DNA from: Enterobacteria phage vB_EcoM_IME339
Length of the DNA: 64,000 nucleotides
Strand: one strand, 5' to 3'
Sequence record: MH051915
The position numbers were made by a program, and so were the translations under genes. A model generated the notes under the pieces. That model saw only the letters and a program-made list of their open reading frames with translations, had not been told where the DNA came from and searched no databases. Positions 35,138-55,153 of the stretch are shown here, piece by piece (the first letter of the stretch is position 1; every line of letters starts with the position of its first letter).

Positions 35138-36340
35138 ATGAAAGTATGTATTTTTATGGCTCGAGGTCTTGAAGGTTGCGGTGTAACTAAATTTTCTCTT
35201 GAGCAACGTGATTGGTTTATTAAAAATGGTCATGAAGTAACTTTGGTTTATGCTAAAGATAAATCATTTACACGTAATTGCGCGCATGATTATAAATCAT
35301 TTTCAATTCCGGTTTTATTGGCAAAAGAATACGATAAAACACTTAAGCTGGTAAATGATTGTGATATTCTAATTATCAATTCAGTTCCTGCTACTTCAGT
35401 CGAAGAAGACACTATTAATAACTATAAAAAAATTATTGATAACATTAAACCTTCAGTTCGTGTTGTAGTTTATCAACATGACCATTCTTCTCTTTCTTTG
35501 CGCCGAAATTTGGGATTAGAAGAAACTGTTCGTCGAGCTGATGTTATTTTTAGTCATTCTGATAATGGTGATTTTAATAAAGTTCTGATGAAAGAATGGT
35601 ATCCAGAAACAGTTTCTCTGTTTGATGATATTGAAGAAGCACCGACTGTATACAACTTTCAGCCTCCTATGGATATTGCGAAGGTTCGATCAACCTACTG
35701 GAAAGATGTTTCTGAAATTAACATGAATGTCAACCGTTGGATTGGTCGTACGACTACATGGAAAGGTTTTTATCAGATGTTTGATTTTCACGAAAAACAT
35801 CTTAAACCTGCTGGACTAAGTACTATTATGGAAGGTCTGGAACGTTCTCCAGCGTTCATTCCTATTAAAGAAAAAGGAATTCCATACGAGTATTATCGTC
35901 TTCATCAAGTAGACCAAATTAAAATTGCTCCTAATTTGCCAACGCAAATTCTCGACCGTTATGTAAATAGCGAAATGCTTGAACGCATGAGTAAATCCGG
36001 ATTTGGTTATCAGTTGAGTAAGTTGGACAAAAAATATCTACAACGTTCTTTAGAATATACTCATCTCGAGCTTGGCGCGTGCGGAACAATTCCAGTATTT
36101 TGGAAATCTACTGGCGAAAATTTAAAATTCCGTGTTGATAATACTCCGTTAATTTCTCATGATAGTGGTATCGTTTGGTTTGATGAAAATGACATGGAAT
36201 CAACATTTGAGCGTATTAAAGAACTGTCATCTGACCGAGCTCTTTATGACTGTGAACGCGAAAAAGCTTATGAATTTTTGTATCAGCATCAAGATTCAAG
36301 CTTCTGCTTTAAAGAACAGTTTGACATTATTACAAAATAA
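35138..36340 (+). CDS. a-gt: DNA alpha-glucosyltransferase
   Basis: 400 aa MKVCIFMARGLEGCGVTKFSLEQRDWFIKNGHEVTLVYAKDKS...; matches remembered T4 alpha-gt. Confidence 0.92.
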   Translation: MKVCIFMARGLEGCGVTKFSLEQRDWFIKNGHEVTLVYAKDKSFTRNCAHDYKSFSIPVLLAKEYDKTLKLVNDCDILIINSVPATSVEEDTINNYKKIIDNIKPSVRVVVYQHDHSSLSLRRNLGLEETVRRADVIFSHSDNGDFNKVLMKEWYPETVSLFDDIEEAPTVYNFQPPMDIAKVRSTYWKDVSEINMNVNRWIGRTTTWKGFYQMFDFHEKHLKPAGLSTIMEGLERSPAFIPIKEKGIPYEYYRLHQVDQIKIAPNLPTQILDRYVNSEMLERMSKSGFGYQLSKLDKKYLQRSLEYTHLELGACGTIPVFWKSTGENLKFRVDNTPLISHDSGIVWFDENDMESTFERIKELSSDRALYDCEREKAYEFLYQHQDSSFCFKEQFDIITK

Positions 36341-43071: not shown

Positions 43072-45768
43072 ATGAAAGAATTTTATATCTCTATCGAAAC
43101 AGTCGGAAATAACATTGTTGAGCGTTATATTGATGAAAATGGAAAGGAACGTACTCGTGAAGTAGAATATCTTCCAACTATGTTTAGGCATTGTAAGGAA
43201 GAGTCAAAATACAAAGACATTTATGGTAAAAATTGTGCTCCTCAAAAATTTCCATCAATGAAAGATGCACGAGATTGGATGAAACGAATGGAAGACATCG
43301 GTCTCGAAGCTCTCGGTATGAACGATTTTAAACTCGCTTATATCAGTGATACATATGGTTCAGAAATTGTTTATGACCGAAAATTTGTTCGTGTAGCTAA
43401 CTGTGACATTGAGGTTACTGGTGATAAATTTCCTGACCCAATGAAAGCAGAATATGAAATTGATGCTATCACTCATTATGATTCAATTGACGACCGTTTT
43501 TACGTCTTTGACTTGTTGAATTCAATGTACGGTTCAGTATCAAAATGGGATGCAAAGTTAGCTGCTAAGCTTGACTGTGAAGGTGGTGATGAAGTTCCTC
43601 AAGAAATTCTTGACCGAGTAATTTATATGCCATTCGATAATGAGCGTGATATGCTTATGGAATATATTAATCTCTGGGAACAGAAACGACCGGCTATTTT
43701 TACCGGTTGGAATATTGAGGGATTTGACGTTCCGTATATCATGAATCGCGTTAAAATGGTTCTGGGTGAACGTAGTATGAAACGCTTCTCTCCAATCGGT
43801 CGAGTAAAATCTAAACTAATTCAAAATATGTACGGTAGCAAAGAAATTTATTCTATTGATGGCGTATCTATTCTTGATTATTTAGATTTGTACAAGAAAT
43901 TCGCATTTACTAATTTGCCATCGTTCTCTTTGGAATCAGTTGCTCAACATGAAACCAAAAAAGGTAAATTGCCGTACGATGGTCCTATTAATAAACTTCG
44001 TGAGACTAATCATCAACGATACATTAGTTATAACATTATTGACGTAGAATCAGTTCAAGCAATTGATAAAATTCGTGGGTTTATCGATCTAGTTTTAAGT
44101 ATGTCTTATTACGCTAAAATGCCTTTTTCTGGTGTAATGAGCCCTATTAAAACTTGGGATGCTATTATTTTTAACTCACTGAAAGGTGAACATAAGGTTA
44201 TTCCTCAACAAGGTTCGCACGTTAAACAGAGTTTTCCAGGTGCATTTGTGTTTGAACCTAAACCGATTGCTCGTCGATACATTATGAGTTTTGACTTGAC
44301 GTCTCTGTATCCTAGCATTATTCGTCAGGTTAACATTAGTCCTGAAACTATTCGTGGACAGTTTAAAGTTCATCCAATTCATGAATATATCGCAGGAACA
44401 GCTCCTAAGCCAAGTGATGAATATTCTTGCTCTCCGAATGGATGGATGTATGATAAGCACCAAGAAGGTATCATTCCAAAGGAAATCGCTAAAGTATTTT
44501 TCCAGCGTAAAGATTGGAAAAAGAAAATGTTCGCGGAAGAAATGAATGCCGAAGCTATTAAAAAGATTATTATGAAAGGTGCAGGGTCTTGCTCAACTAA
44601 ACCAGAAGTTGAACGATATGTTAAGTTCAATGATGATTTCTTAAACGAATTATCGAATTACACCGAATCTGTTCTTAATAGTCTGATTGAAGAATGTGAA
44701 AAAGCTGCTACACTTGCTAACACAAATCAGCTGAACCGTAAAATTCTTATTAACAGTCTTTATGGTGCTCTTGGTAATATTCATTTCCGCTACTATGATT
44801 TGCGAAATGCTACTGCTATCACAATTTTCGGTCAAGTTGGTATTCAGTGGATTGCTCGCAAAATTAATGAATATCTAAATAAAGTGTGTGGAACTAATGG
44901 TGAAGATTTCATCGCAGCAGGTGATACTGATTCGGTATATGTTTGTGTAGATAAAGTTATTGAAAAAGTAGGTCTTGATCGCTTTAAAGAACAAAATGAT
45001 TTAGTTGAATTTATGAATCAGTTTGGTAAGAAAAAGATGGAACCTATGATTGATGTTGCATATCGTGAGTTATGTGATTATATGAATAACCGCGAGCATC
45101 TGATGCATATGGACCGTGAAGCTATTTCTTGCCCTCCGCTTGGTTCAAAGGGTGTCGGTGGATTTTGGAAAGCGAAAAAACGTTATGCTCTGAACGTTTA
45201 TGACATGGAAGATAAGCGATTTGCCGAACCGCATCTAAAAATTATGGGTATGGAAACTCAACAGAGTTCAACACCAAAAGCAGTACAAGAAGCTCTCGAA
45301 GAAAGTATTCGTCGTATTCTTCAGGAAGGTGAAGAGTCTGTCCAAGAATATTACAAGAACTTTGAGAAAGAATATCGTCAACTTGATTATAAAGTTATTG
45401 CTGAAGTAAAAACTGCGAACGATATAGCGAAATATGATGATAAAGGTTGGCCAGGATTTAAATGCCCGTTCCACATTCGTGGGGTGCTAACTTATCGTCG
45501 AGCTGTTAGTGGTTTAGGTGTAGCTCCAATTTTGGATGGAAATAAGGTAATGGTTCTTCCATTACGTGAGGGAAATCCATTTGGTGACAAGTGTATTGCT
45601 TGGCCGTCGGGTACGGAACTTCCAAAAGAAATTCGTTCTGATGTACTGTCTTGGATTGACTACTCAACTTTGTTCCAAAAATCGTTTGTTAAACCGCTTG
45701 CGGGTATGTGTGAATCGGCAGGTATGGACTATGAGGAAAAAGCTTCGTTAGACTTCCTGTTTGGCTGA
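43072..45768 (+). CDS. 43: DNA polymerase gp43 (family B)
   Basis: 898 aa; exonuclease and polymerase motifs incl. SLYPS, KILINSLYG, GDTDS. Confidence 0.97.
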   Translation: MKEFYISIETVGNNIVERYIDENGKERTREVEYLPTMFRHCKEESKYKDIYGKNCAPQKFPSMKDARDWMKRMEDIGLEALGMNDFKLAYISDTYGSEIVYDRKFVRVANCDIEVTGDKFPDPMKAEYEIDAITHYDSIDDRFYVFDLLNSMYGSVSKWDAKLAAKLDCEGGDEVPQEILDRVIYMPFDNERDMLMEYINLWEQKRPAIFTGWNIEGFDVPYIMNRVKMVLGERSMKRFSPIGRVKSKLIQNMYGSKEIYSIDGVSILDYLDLYKKFAFTNLPSFSLESVAQHETKKGKLPYDGPINKLRETNHQRYISYNIIDVESVQAIDKIRGFIDLVLSMSYYAKMPFSGVMSPIKTWDAIIFNSLKGEHKVIPQQGSHVKQSFPGAFVFEPKPIARRYIMSFDLTSLYPSIIRQVNISPETIRGQFKVHPIHEYIAGTAPKPSDEYSCSPNGWMYDKHQEGIIPKEIAKVFFQRKDWKKKMFAEEMNAEAIKKIIMKGAGSCSTKPEVERYVKFNDDFLNELSNYTESVLNSLIEECEKAATLANTNQLNRKILINSLYGALGNIHFRYYDLRNATAITIFGQVGIQWIARKINEYLNKVCGTNGEDFIAAGDTDSVYVCVDKVIEKVGLDRFKEQNDLVEFMNQFGKKKMEPMIDVAYRELCDYMNNREHLMHMDREAISCPPLGSKGVGGFWKAKKRYALNVYDMEDKRFAEPHLKIMGMETQQSSTPKAVQEALEESIRRILQEGEESVQEYYKNFEKEYRQLDYKVIAEVKTANDIAKYDDKGWPGFKCPFHIRGVLTYRRAVSGLGVAPILDGNKVMVLPLREGNPFGDKCIAWPSGTELPKEIRSDVLSWIDYSTLFQKSFVKPLAGMCESAGMDYEEKASLDFLFG

Positions 45769-45780
45769 TAGAATAAATCT

Positions 45781-45803
45781 AGGGACCTCCGGGTCCCTTT
45801 TTC
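45781..45803 (+). terminator. intrinsic terminator
   Basis: gggacctccgggtccc + tttttc. Confidence 0.7.
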
Positions 45804-45884
45804 ATACAAGTAATATAAATCTATACTTAGGAAAAATAGATGATTCTGGACCTCTGGAATTCATTAAAAATTTTTTTCACAAAA

Positions 45885-45918
45885 TGGTTTACATCCCGGT
45901 TCCTTTGTGGTACTATAC
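45885..45918 (+). promoter_or_regulatory. T4-type early promoter in repeated cassette
   Basis: tttttcacaaaatgGTTTACAtcccggttcctttgTGgTACTAT. Confidence 0.6.
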
Positions 45919-45953
45919 AACTATCAACTACTGATACAGATTTGGAGAATGAA
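45905..45953 (+). repeat. conserved promoter-leader cassette (PeSL-like), copy 4
   Basis: tggtactatacaactatcaactactgatacagatttggagaatgaaATG. Confidence 0.6.
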
Positions 45954-46334
45954 ATGAAAATCGCTATTTTGGTTATTGCATTGGGTCTTACTGGTTGTGT
46001 AGCTCAAGGACCAGTAGTAAATCAGTCTGATGCAGGAAAAATTGTAAACTGTTCAAGCAAATTTTATAATCCTAACGTCAAGTGTTATAAAGAAGCTCCA
46101 AAACAGACAGTAGAACAAATGCAGGCGAATTTTGACGAAGCTATTCGTTCAGATGAATCTGCCCAAGCATATCGTAATTCAGATGTAATTACACGCGAAG
46201 AAAAAATTGAAAATTACTGCGCCGTTCTTTGGGCAAATTGGGCTAATAATTACCAATGGCGTACAGGTAAAAACGCTCCGATGGAGTATGTAGTGAATTC
46301 TTATAATTCATGTGTAAAAAATTTGACTAAGTGA
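45954..46334 (+). CDS. predicted lipoprotein
   Basis: ATG 45954 after cassette (ORF track 45840 runs through promoter); signal peptide with lipobox LTGC. Confidence 0.55.
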   Translation: MKIAILVIALGLTGCVAQGPVVNQSDAGKIVNCSSKFYNPNVKCYKEAPKQTVEQMQANFDEAIRSDESAQAYRNSDVITREEKIENYCAVLWANWANNYQWRTGKNAPMEYVVNSYNSCVKNLTK

Positions 46335-46341
46335 GGAAAAC

Positions 46342-46593
46342 ATGGAAACTTTAGTAGCAGGTTCAATTTTTATGGTTTTAGTTTCAGGCGTGTTGGCTAT
46401 TATTATATACATGCTTCCGTGGTTCATCGCCTTGATGCGTGGGTCAAAATCGACAGTAGGAATCTTTTTCACATCTTTACTGTTTAACTGGTCAATCATT
46501 GGTTGGTTTATTACATTTATTTGGTCAATTGCGGGTGAAACTAAAAAATCTGTACAGCAAAATCAAGTAATTATCATCAGAGAGAAGGAATGA
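46342..46593 (+). CDS. imm: immunity (superinfection exclusion) membrane protein Imm
   Basis: 83 aa two-TM protein, size and position between 43 and 42 as T4 Imm. Confidence 0.8.
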   Translation: METLVAGSIFMVLVSGVLAIIIYMLPWFIALMRGSKSTVGIFFTSLLFNWSIIGWFITFIWSIAGETKKSVQQNQVIIIREKE

Positions 46594-46739
46594 AAAGCAA
46601 AATTTTAGCAGTATTGCTTTTAATCTTGATGATTATAATAAGTATATACTATAGCGTAACGGTTCCTTGCATGATTCCGACACTTATTATAGGTTGGGGT
46701 TTATTACTGTTACAAGTTAAATATGAATGTATCAATTGA
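46590..46739 (+). CDS. small membrane peptide
   Basis: 49 aa hydrophobic ORF not in track; ATGA overlap with imm. Confidence 0.4.
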   Translation: MKSKILAVLLLILMIIISIYYSVTVPCMIPTLIIGWGLLLLQVKYECIN

Positions 46740-46746
46740 GGTTTAA

Positions 46747-47487
46747 ATGATTAATGACTCTATGACAGTTGAAGAAATCCGTCTTCATTTGGGAATTGCA
46801 TTAAAGGAAAAAGATTTCGTAGTTGATAAAACTGGTGTTAAAACTATTGAAATTATTGGTGCATCATTTGTAGCAGATGAACCTTTTATTTTTGGCGCTC
46901 TTAATGATGAATACATTCAGCGTGAACTTGAATGGTATAAGTCTCAAAGTTTGTTTGTTAAAGATATTCCAGGTGAAACACCAAAGATTTGGCAGCAGGT
47001 AGCATCTTCTAAAGGCGAAATTAACTCGAATTATGGTTGGGCTATCTGGTCAGAAGATAACTATGCTCAGTATGATATGTGTTTAGCTGAACTTGGTCAA
47101 AATCCTGATTCTCGGCGTGGTATCATGATTTATACTCGTCCATCCATGCAGTTTGACTACAACAAAGATGGTATGTCAGATTTCATGTGTACGAATACAG
47201 TACAGTACCTGATTCGTGATAAGAAAGTCAATGCAGTAGTAAGCATGCGTTCAAATGACGTGGTCTTCGGATTCCGTAATGATTATGCATGGCAAAAATA
47301 CGTACTAGATAAATTAGTATCTGATTTGAATGCAGGTGATTCAACTCGCCAGTATAAAGCAGGTTCCATTATATGGAATGTCGGGAGCCTTCATGTGTAT
47401 TCTCGTCATTTTTATTTGGTTGACCATTGGTGGAAAACCGGCGAAACTCATATTGCGAAAAAAGATTATAATGGTGAGTGGAAATGA
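46747..47487 (+). CDS. 42: dCMP hydroxymethylase gp42
   Basis: 246 aa thymidylate-synthase-like protein; matches remembered T4 gp42. Confidence 0.93.
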   Translation: MINDSMTVEEIRLHLGIALKEKDFVVDKTGVKTIEIIGASFVADEPFIFGALNDEYIQRELEWYKSQSLFVKDIPGETPKIWQQVASSKGEINSNYGWAIWSEDNYAQYDMCLAELGQNPDSRRGIMIYTRPSMQFDYNKDGMSDFMCTNTVQYLIRDKKVNAVVSMRSNDVVFGFRNDYAWQKYVLDKLVSDLNAGDSTRQYKAGSIIWNVGSLHVYSRHFYLVDHWWKTGETHIAKKDYNGEWK

Positions 47488-48326
47488 TTCAATTTGTAAT
47501 TCCAAGCTATCAACGCGTAGGGGCAGTTTCTGCCCTTGATATGTTTCCGACTGATTATGAACCTCATATTGTAGTACGTGAACATGAAGAAAAAGCTTAT
47601 TATGACGCTTACGGGTCTAGAGCTAAAATTATAACTATTCCTGATGATGTTAATGGAATTGCTGGAACTCGTAAAGCAATTACTGATATGTATGCAGGTC
47701 AACGAATTTGGATGATTGATGATGATACTACTATTCGTATGAGTTCAATGCGAAAGAAAGATGATCGTCGCTGCGTAGATAAAATTAATCAATTAACTCG
47801 TGAACAGTTCTATGAATTGATTCAATACGTGGAAGATGCCATGGATTGCGGGTATTATCACGGTCATGCTCGTCTACCTATTTTTAAAATTACTTCATCT
47901 TGGGGTAATTATCGTGAAAATTCATATGGATTCACGAATACATGGTATGACCTCGGAAAACTTACTACAGAACAAATTGGGTATGGAAAAATTGATTTAT
48001 GCGAAGATATGTATGCATTTCTCAATTTAATTAACCAAGGTTATCCGCATTTGGCTTTGTTCAAATATCTGGTTGTGTCTGGAAAAGCGCAGGCTCCTGG
48101 CGGATGTAGTTCAATTCGTAGTAATTCAAAACATAATAGAGCTCTTGAGCAAATCAATAGAGAGTTTCCAGAGCAAGCTCGTTGGAAAACTTCTAATATT
48201 GAAAAACGAAAATCATTAGGTGAAGAAGACGAGCCATTAAAGGTTCTTCGTATGTGTGTTTCGCGCAAAGAAAAATCAGAAGCGTTTCATAAGTTTAATG
48301 CTATTCATCCAATAGCAGTCGATTAA
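47478..48326 (+). CDS. GT-A-like glycosyltransferase in the beta-gt slot (possibly beta-alpha-glucosyl-HMC transferase as in T2/T6)
   Basis: 282 aa; DxD-type motif IWMIDDDTTIRM; unlike remembered T4 beta-gt (GT-B, 351 aa). Confidence 0.65.
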   Translation: MEMIQFVIPSYQRVGAVSALDMFPTDYEPHIVVREHEEKAYYDAYGSRAKIITIPDDVNGIAGTRKAITDMYAGQRIWMIDDDTTIRMSSMRKKDDRRCVDKINQLTREQFYELIQYVEDAMDCGYYHGHARLPIFKITSSWGNYRENSYGFTNTWYDLGKLTTEQIGYGKIDLCEDMYAFLNLINQGYPHLALFKYLVVSGKAQAPGGCSSIRSNSKHNRALEQINREFPEQARWKTSNIEKRKSLGEEDEPLKVLRMCVSRKEKSEAFHKFNAIHPIAVD

Positions 48327-48403
48327 TGCCTAAATTTATTGTGTTATAATTACCCTATCTTTAACCAGTGAGGAAAATATAATGATGCCTATGGAAAAAA
48401 TGA

Positions 48404-49585
48404 ATGTCTATTGCAGATTTAAAATCCCGTTTGATTAAAGCTTCCACTTCTAAAATGACTGCTGAACTGACTACATCTAAATTCTTTAATGAAAAGGATG
48501 TAATCCGTACAAAAATTCCAATGCTTAATATCGCTATTTCCGGCGCGATTGATGGTGGTATGCAGTCTGGTTTAACTATTTTTGCAGGTCCTTCTAAACA
48601 CTTTAAATCAAATATGTCTTTGACTATGGTTGCGGCGTATTTGAACAAATATCCTGATGCGGTTTGTCTATTTTATGATAGCGAATTTGGTATTACTCCA
48701 GCTTATTTGCGATCCATGGGAGTTGACCCGGAACGAGTAATTCATACACCAATCCAGTCAGTTGAACAACTGAAAATTGATATGGTGAATCAGCTTGAAG
48801 CTATTGAGCGCGGTGAAAAAGTTATTGTATTCATCGACTCAATCGGTAATATGGCTTCTAAGAAAGAAACGGAAGATGCCTTGAATGAAAAATCTGTGGC
48901 AGATATGACTCGTGCTAAATCACTGAAGTCATTATTCCGTATTGTTACTCCTTATTTTAGTATTAAAAACATTCCGTGCGTTGCGGTTAACCATACAATT
49001 GAAACAATTGAAATGTTTAGTAAAACCGTGATGACAGGTGGTACAGGCGTAATGTATTCGGCTGATACTGTATTCATTATCGGTAAGCGTCAGATTAAAG
49101 ATGGTTCTGATCTTCAGGGGTATCAATTTGTTCTAAATGTAGAAAAATCTCGTACCGTTAAAGAAAAAAGTAAATTCTTTATTGATGTTAAATTTGACGG
49201 TGGTATCGATCCTTATTCTGGATTGTTAGATATGGCTCTTGAATTAGGATTTGTAGTAAAACCTAAAAATGGCTGGTATGCTCGTGAATTTCTTGATGAA
49301 GAAACCGGCGAGATGATTCGCGAAGAAAAATCTTGGCGTGCAAAAGATACCAACTGTACTACATTCTGGGGTCCTTTATTTAAGCATCAACCATTCCGAG
49401 ATGCTATTAAACGCGCTTATCAGTTGGGTGCTATTGATAGTAATGAAATTGTTGAAGCTGAAGTTGATGAATTGATTAACTCAAAGGTTGAAAAATTTAA
49501 ATCTCCAGAAAGTAAAAGTAAATCAGCAGCTGATTTAGAAACTGACCTAGATCAGTTAAGTGATATGGAAGAATTTAATGAATAA
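48404..49585 (+). CDS. uvsX: recombinase UvsX (RecA-like)
   Basis: 393 aa MSIADLKSRLIKASTSKMTAELTTSKFFNEKDVIRTKIPMLNIAISGAIDGG...; Walker A GPSKHFKSN. Confidence 0.95.
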   Translation: MSIADLKSRLIKASTSKMTAELTTSKFFNEKDVIRTKIPMLNIAISGAIDGGMQSGLTIFAGPSKHFKSNMSLTMVAAYLNKYPDAVCLFYDSEFGITPAYLRSMGVDPERVIHTPIQSVEQLKIDMVNQLEAIERGEKVIVFIDSIGNMASKKETEDALNEKSVADMTRAKSLKSLFRIVTPYFSIKNIPCVAVNHTIETIEMFSKTVMTGGTGVMYSADTVFIIGKRQIKDGSDLQGYQFVLNVEKSRTVKEKSKFFIDVKFDGGIDPYSGLLDMALELGFVVKPKNGWYAREFLDEETGEMIREEKSWRAKDTNCTTFWGPLFKHQPFRDAIKRAYQLGAIDSNEIVEAEVDELINSKVEKFKSPESKSKSAADLETDLDQLSDMEEFNE

Positions 49586-49916
49586 AGATGATTTAGATCT
49601 AGAAATTATCGATGAATCCCCCTCTTCGGAGGGGGAAGAAGAAAGAAAAGAACGTCTTTTTAATGAATCTCTTAAGATAATTAAATCTGCCATGGAAAAT
49701 GTTATCCAGGAGATTGTCATTAAACTAGAAGATGGTTCTACACACATTGTGTATGTGACAAAATTAGATTGGGTTGATGGAAAAGTCGTAATGGACTTTG
49801 CTGTTCTTGACCAAGAAAGAAAAGCTGAGTTAGCTCCTCATGTAGAAAAATGTATTACAATGCAACTACAAGATGCATTTAATAAAAGGTCAAAGAAAAA
49901 ATTTAAATTCTTTTAA
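49560..49916 (+). CDS. 40: gp40 (head vertex assembly chaperone)
   Basis: 118 aa ORF between uvsX and 41; start overlaps uvsX 3' end. Confidence 0.65.
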   Translation: MIWKNLMNKDDLDLEIIDESPSSEGEEERKERLFNESLKIIKSAMENVIQEIVIKLEDGSTHIVYVTKLDWVDGKVVMDFAVLDQERKAELAPHVEKCITMQLQDAFNKRSKKKFKFF

Positions 49917-54366: not shown

Positions 54367-54563
54367 ATTAACCCAACCAAAGCAAATGCTAAATCTACGA
54401 ATGTATCAAGAGTAATTACTGGAATACTAACGCCATGAGCAATAGCAACTGGCGATAAAACAAAATTCCAAAGTAAAATTCCTATCATAGCAGAAATAGT
54501 AAAAGCTATACGTTTTTTATTACCTTTTATGGCATTAACAAGTGCCATTAATTTTTGTACCAT
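54363..54563 (-). CDS. small membrane protein encoded antisense in the 61-56 gap
   Basis: 66 aa minus-strand ORF, two hydrophobic helices, in an otherwise non-coding spacer. Confidence 0.35.
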   Translation of the reverse strand: MVQKLMALVNAIKGNKKRIAFTISAMIGILLWNFVLSPVAIAHGVSIPVITLDTFVDLAFALVGLI

Positions 54564-54574
54564 ATATCCTCCTT

Positions 54575-54600
54575 ATTGCTTTATATATTTATTGTATAAT
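54575..54600 (+). promoter_or_regulatory. T4 middle promoter (MotA box + -10) for gene 56
   Basis: atTGCTTTAtatatttattgTATAAT. Confidence 0.55.
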
Positions 54601-54634
54601 TAATCTACTAATCCATGAATTGAAAGGAAAAATA

Positions 54635-55153
54635 ATGGCATACTTTAATGAATGCGCTCATTTGATCGAAGGTGTTGATAAAGCAAATCGTGCATATGCT
54701 GAGAATATTATGCACAATATTGACCCGCTGCAGGTTATGCTTGATATGCAGCGGCATTTACAAATTCGTTTGGCTAACGATAAACCAGAAACAAATCGTC
54801 ATCCCGATTCACTTGAAACTGCGGGAGAAGTTCTTGCTTGGCTGCGAAACCAAGACGATTATATCGCAGACGAAACTCGCGAGCTATATACTTCTCTTGG
54901 TGGTATGAGCAATGGCGAAAAAGAAGCTTCTGCTGTATGGAAACCTTGGAAGAAACGTTATTCTGAAATGCAATCCAAGAAAATTCAAGATTTATCTCCT
55001 GAAGATCAACTTGAAATTAAATTTGAATTGATTGATCAATTTCACTTTTTCATGAATAAATTCATTGCTCTTGGAATGTCAGCTGAAGAAATCTTTAAAC
55101 TTTATTATTTGAAAAATGCTGAAAACTTCGCTCGTCAAGATCGAGGTTATTAA
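54635..55153 (+). CDS. 56: dCTPase/dUTPase gp56 (MazG-like)
   Basis: 172 aa from ATG 54635: MAYFNECAHLIEGVDKANRAYAENIMH...; ORF track start 54542 runs through promoter. Confidence 0.85.
   Translation: MAYFNECAHLIEGVDKANRAYAENIMHNIDPLQVMLDMQRHLQIRLANDKPETNRHPDSLETAGEVLAWLRNQDDYIADETRELYTSLGGMSNGEKEASAVWKPWKKRYSEMQSKKIQDLSPEDQLEIKFELIDQFHFFMNKFIALGMSAEEIFKLYYLKNAENFARQDRGY

Follow-up and report, generated by a model that had tools for sequence, protein, structure and literature searches.

A very probable T2/T6-type second-glucose transferase in the beta-gt slot of Enterobacteria phage vB_EcoM_IME339

In T4, the interval between gene 42 and uvsX carries beta-gt, and the corresponding interval of Enterobacteria phage vB_EcoM_IME339 (sequence record MH051915) raises the question of which enzyme occupies it and what this enzyme would do to the phage DNA. 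The window analyzed here is a stretch of 64,000 nucleotides (64 kb) of this record, in which a first-pass annotation, made from the sequence, had placed an ORF in the T4 beta-gt slot. This placement is borne out by the Pfam matches of the flanking genes and by collinearity with T6: window positions 45701-49700 align over their full length with T6 (95.6% identity), T2 is also collinear, and the surrounding 20 kb share 96-98% identity with many Tequatrovirus genomes. The gene, hereafter ba-gt, therefore lies in a Tequatrovirus backbone, with gene 42 on one side and uvsX on the other. Homology to T4 ends at window position 47469 and returns at 48415, so that the variable slot is sharply delimited, by the 3' terminus of gene 42 on one side and the 5' terminus of uvsX on the other. 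While in T4 (NC_000866, 23561-25479) the slot spans about 1.9 kb and holds b-gt with the adjoining homing endonuclease gene segA, the window slot measures about 0.95 kb and holds ba-gt only; a search of the whole 64-kb window for segA (GIY-YIG) yielded no significant match. The features discussed below are collected in Table 1.

Table 1. Position and supporting evidence of ba-gt, its sequence landmarks and its partner genes in the window
Feature	Coordinates	Strand	Evidence or remark
ba-gt CDS (ba-gt / ggt / g-gt; Pfam TAGT PF20691; GT-A fold)	47484..48326	+	280 aa plus stop
ATGA overlap of ba-gt start and gene 42 stop	47484..47487	+	sequence; T2, EH2 and Geo annotation
R11 codon, family-invariant; His in all T2 records	47514..47516	+	alignment of 47 homologues
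GATGATGAT, codons D79-D80-D81, DxD-type motif immediately following beta-4 in the GT-A core	47718..47726	+	sequence, alignment, model
Gene 42, dCMP hydroxymethylase (hm-dCMP supply)	46747..47487	+	Pfam Thymidylat_synt 58 bits; PHROG 160; collinear with gp42 of T6, T4 and T2
Alpha-glucosyltransferase (a-gt), maker of the ba-gt acceptor	35138..36340	+	Pfam PF11440 AGT 782.7 bits; PHROG 2888, E 8.5e-221
Probable gene 56 dCTPase/dUTPase, bars dCTP from phage DNA	54635..55153	+	PHROG 173, E 2.4e-44; collinear with T6 gp56
uvsX recombinase, downstream edge of the variable slot	48404..49585	+	Pfam T4_UVSX_C 132.8 bits; RecA

The + strand ORF 47478..48326, in which IWMIDDDTTIRM is contained, is uninterrupted and gives the 282 aa first proposed if it is counted from a GTG. 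The ORF is real, but its start has to be moved: translation almost certainly begins at ATG 47484, two codons 3' of GTG 47478, and the product is accordingly 280 aa long. This start was chosen because the ATG overlaps the TGA of gene 42 as ATGA, because an 843-nt CDS is annotated from the same ATG in the T2, EH2 and Geo records, and because the alignment with the Pfam TAGT profile sets residue 3 onto profile position 2. A Shine-Dalgarno-like GGTGAG, kept in T2 and T6, is found upstream of the ATG, and the overlap with gene 42 suggests translational coupling. With respect to each of nine relatives, ba-gt shows 35-50 nucleotide differences, which change the amino acid in just 2-7 codons; since about 90% of these differences fall at third codon positions, the comparison marks ba-gt as a real gene under purifying selection. 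Overlapping small ORFs on either strand, such as 47466..47702 and 48041..48268 on the minus strand, are unsupported and were taken as chance, and a "terminator-like" hairpin at 47518-47538 was disregarded as lying inside the ba-gt CDS. A scan of 45700-48500 for sigma-70 and terminator consensus sequences scored no more hits than in shuffled sequence and yielded nothing convincing for ba-gt.

From the comparative evidence, the gene at 47484-48326 is very probably the T2/T6-type beta-glucosyl-HMC-alpha-glucosyltransferase, i.e., the second-glucose enzyme, and the T2/T6-type reading put forward by the first-pass annotation is upheld by the comparison it had called for. In fact, over 280 aa the protein is 98.6% identical to that of T2 and 97.9% identical to that of T6, both being full-length orthologues, and it matches PHROG 842 ("beta-glucosyl-HMC-alpha-glucosyltransferase") with an E-value of 5.6e-89 over profile positions 4-269 of 270. 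A tblastn search with the protein against 50,697 phage records matched 688 of them, 684 over at least 80% of the query and 470 with at least 95% identity; the best matches, at 100% identity, are in coliphages ZCEC15 and UFV06. Moreover, Pfam PF20691 (TET-associated glycosyltransferase, TAGT) is matched with 38.8 bits (E 1.2e-09), above its curated gathering threshold of 27.5 bits, and is aligned end to end (ba-gt residues 3-207 to profile 2-205 of 205). The more distant homologues found all carry this domain, beyond which the T-even clade has an additional C-terminal stretch of about 70 residues (208-280). The name of PF20691 refers to a TET/JBP dioxygenase partner, whereas the T-even enzyme acts downstream of dCMP hydroxymethylase. 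The ba-gt genes of T2 and T6 share with that of the window their length, the position between gene 42 and uvsX, the ATGA overlap and the alpha-gt partner. The T2 enzyme differs from the window allele at four residues (R11H, K92R, I101V and P251S in T2), the T6 record MH550421 at five residues plus a nonsense codon, and the family-invariant residues are all kept in the window allele but not in T2 or in either T6 reference record.

The protein encoded in the slot is outside the T4 b-gt family. The absence of resemblance reported by the first-pass annotation was confirmed: BLASTP between the two proteins gave a best E-value of 3.4 over 8 residues, PF09198, the T4 b-gt family, did not match ba-gt at E ≤ 1, and tblastn of T4 beta-gt, whose indicated length of 351 aa is correct, returned nothing at E ≤ 10 in the entire 64-kb window. 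The window thus combines ba-gt with an alpha-gt, found where it had been indicated, and is devoid of beta-gt. T4 b-gt (PDB 1JG7) and ba-gt have in common the genomic slot, the UDP-glucose donor and a beta linkage in hmC hypermodification; they differ in the acceptor, which is hmC for the former and alpha-glucosyl-hmC for the latter, and in the fold, which is GT-B in T4 b-gt and GT-A in ba-gt (see also PMC13216743).

The two-domain GT-B fold is not found in ba-gt. Because a single-sequence AlphaFold model of ba-gt was unusable (pLDDT 39.6), the structure was predicted from a 47-sequence alignment, and the model obtained shows a single Rossmann-like alpha/beta/alpha domain resembling solved GT-A enzymes, as the description "GT-A-like" had anticipated. 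The DxD-type motif already noticed is D79-D80-D81; its three residues are invariant across the 47 homologues, some of which are only 13% identical, and it directly follows a predicted strand (residues 74-78), in the place after beta-4 where GT-A enzymes have their conserved DxD. The GT-A inverting enzymes (GT2-like; TarP, TarS, SpsA, GnT-I) share merely 7-16% identity with ba-gt and act on a glycan, lipid or protein, whereas ba-gt takes as acceptor a sugar carried by duplex DNA. In the PDB, no relative was found by sequence; the best E-value, 0.76, was spurious. As no member of the family has a solved structure, roles are assigned by GT-A analogy, according to which the DDD motif would serve in catalysis and metal binding and R11 would also have a part.

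The T2/T6 enzyme has been described as adding a glucose to hmC that already carries an alpha-linked one, whereby gentiobiosyl-hmC is formed (PMC13216743). From a biochemical perspective, the pathway proposed for this phage would comprise five steps. The products of genes 56 and 42 would substitute hm-dC for dC in the pool of nucleotides, and hmC would then be incorporated by the polymerase; PHROG 173, matched by the probable gene 56, is a nucleoside triphosphate pyrophosphohydrolase, and the putative start of this gene is an internal ATG of ORF 54542..55153. Alpha-gt would next attach glucose, donated by UDP-glucose, to the hydroxymethyl group through an alpha linkage. After alpha-gt, ba-gt would use its DDD motif together with a divalent cation to bind UDP-glucose and would transfer, with inversion, a second glucose to the O6 position of the first, alpha-linked one, which is borne by hmC in duplex DNA, the resulting beta-1,6 linkage yielding gentiobiosyl-hmC. 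On this pathway, the phage DNA would be expected to contain hmC, alpha-glucosyl-hmC and gentiobiosyl-hmC and no beta-glucosyl-hmC. This corresponds to what was reported for Tequatrovirus phages with alpha-GT and TAGT, in which hmC, alpha-glucosyl-hmC and alpha-gentiobiosyl-hmC were detected and beta-glucosyl-hmC was not, in a study of the Durham collection that also described TAGT as syntenic with T4 beta-GT (PMC13390438). The second sugar would protect alpha-glucosyl-hmC against enzymes that recognize it specifically, among them the glycosylase Brig1 and the glucosidase BapA: DNA of T6 delta-ba-gt contains alpha-glucosyl-hmC only and becomes degradable by Brig1 (PMC11078745), and BapA acts on T6 delta-g-gt DNA (bioRxiv 10.64898/2026.02.25.707755). 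The activity, linkage and defence effects attributed to ba-gt would thus be those published for T6 and its close relatives, while its metal dependence and chemistry would be those of GT-A enzymes.

The shared slot, together with the labels "beta glucosyl transferase" and "putative beta-glucosyltransferase" given to the orthologue in several GenBank records, could suggest a functional analogue of T4 beta-gt that sets a single beta-glucose directly on hmC. This is very improbable: the protein is unrelated to T4 beta-gt in sequence and fold, no beta-glucosyl-hmC is found in T2, T6 or the Durham Tequatrovirus phages with ba-gt (PMC11078745, PMC13390438), and T6 delta-ba-gt DNA behaves as alpha-glucosylated, being a Brig1 substrate (PMC11078745). 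Even less credit is given to a different sugar donor or acceptor, for instance another hexose or a pentose, as in the arabinosylating T4-like phages. PF20691 is a diverse family, and its many solitary TAGT homologues, which lack an alpha- or beta-GT, imply other specificities within it (PMC13216743); the window enzyme, however, is 97-100% identical to those of phages with gentiobiose shown in their DNA (PMC13390438), and the EH2 enzyme differs from it at two conservative positions only. A second-glucose enzyme that is present and weakly active, leaving mostly mono-alpha-glucosyl-hmC and a few per cent of gentiobiosyl-hmC as in T2, is improbable, though less so than the other two. The T2 enzyme is nearly identical to that of the window, yet T2 has only about 5% gentiobiosyl-hmC (PMC11078745), levels are intermediate in Geo, EL and BGP despite intact enzymes (PMC13390438), and the level may also depend on factors outside the ORF, such as expression or the alpha-gt allele, the window alpha-gt differing from that of Geo at 37 residues. 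On the other hand, the window enzyme carries neither of the T2-specific changes R11H, at an invariant residue, and P251S, and is separated by just two conservative changes (K92R and I101V) from the enzyme of EH2, in whose DNA gentiobiosyl-hmC makes up about two-thirds.

The second-glucose activity thus preferred says little about its extent. Among phages with near-identical enzymes, di-glucosylation ranges from 5% in T2 through about 40% in Geo, EL and BGP to about 65-72% in T6 and EH2 (PMC13390438, PMC11078745). An attempt to predict the mono-/di-glucosyl ratio from the enzyme sequences of EH2, Geo, T2 and T6 failed: Geo is intermediate, yet its enzyme keeps the invariant residues intact and has seven other substitutions. 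Because levels vary in this way, the ratio is unreadable from the ba-gt ORF alone, and what we infer about it for this phage stays conditional. Judged by the enzyme alone, the window allele appears closest to the high-gentiobiosyl EH2 type. R11H and P251S are the sole differences between the T2 and EH2 enzymes, and over the first 200 nt of the gene, codon 11 included, all eight T2/SV76 records have the same sequence. R11H may be the cause of the low gentiobiosylation of T2. The stronger statement, that the window allele, in which R11 and P251 are intact, is the fully active form and that the 5% of T2 against the 72% of T6 is due to R11H, fixed in all stocks of T2, is tentative and rather doubtful. 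If true, it would make the extent of di-glucosylation in T-even phages predictable from ba-gt alone, and it would bear on the relatives more than on the phage studied here. This explanation of the T2 level was not found discussed in the cited literature, and a scan of IMG/VR gave only five loci, not enough to survey residue 11 at the population level.

Lesions in ba-gt are present in both T6 genome records at places where the window allele is intact. In MH550421, a TAG is present at codon 10, which is why the CDS is annotated from M20 with 261 aa. In AP018814/NC_054907, one GAT has been lost from the GATGATGAT repeat, so that the protein (YP_010067197.1, 279 aa) lacks one Asp of the DDD motif; this protein is the reference TAGT of PMC13216743. 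Both lesions may be stock-specific mutations or sequencing errors.

The syntenic exchange, the GT-A fold and the role in gentiobiosyl-hmC formation are already published and nothing in them is new, the published basis being T6 deletion mutants (PMC11078745; bioRxiv 10.64898/2026.02.25.707755) and LC-MS of close relatives (PMC13390438). Furthermore, ba-gt in the beta-gt slot, an arrangement present in hundreds of sequenced T4-like phages, is the majority state among T4-like coliphages and is in this sense ordinary. The assignment is useful for phage annotation and host range prediction: ba-gt decides between mono- and di-glucosylated hydroxymethylcytosine in phage DNA, and this difference affects how sensitive the phage DNA is to defences directed at specific modifications, for instance Brig1, BapA and GmrSD-type enzymes.

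Some minor observations concern the neighbouring sequences. Between ba-gt and uvsX, the + strand region 48325-48350 contains an extended -10 sequence, TGtTATAAT (TATAAT at 48345-48350), preceded by AATGCCTAAA at a distance of about 20 nt; together they resemble a T4 MotA-dependent middle promoter, which has no -35 element. The region differs by one nucleotide in T2 and T6, and the TGtTATAAT site was not listed by the sigma-70 consensus scan. Between imm and gene 42, a strongly hydrophobic 49-aa ORF (46590-46739, +), whose start overlaps the imm stop, matches PHROG 3610 (unknown function) with an E-value of 1.2e-25; it is conserved in T4, T6 and T2. Its T4 and T6 copies are intact but carry no annotation in NC_000866 and MH550421, and the T2, EH2 and Geo records list it as "hypothetical". 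Finally, the mechanical 164-aa ORF after gene 43 (45840-46334, +) corresponds to Imm.1, the true start of which is probably an internal ATG giving a product with a signal peptide of the lipoprotein type (MKIAILVIALGLTGC...) that includes a lipobox Cys, in agreement with the 126-aa T6 annotation of Imm.1; the product name of imm.1 in the T4 RefSeq record, "iduronate sulfatase", looks like an annotation artefact.
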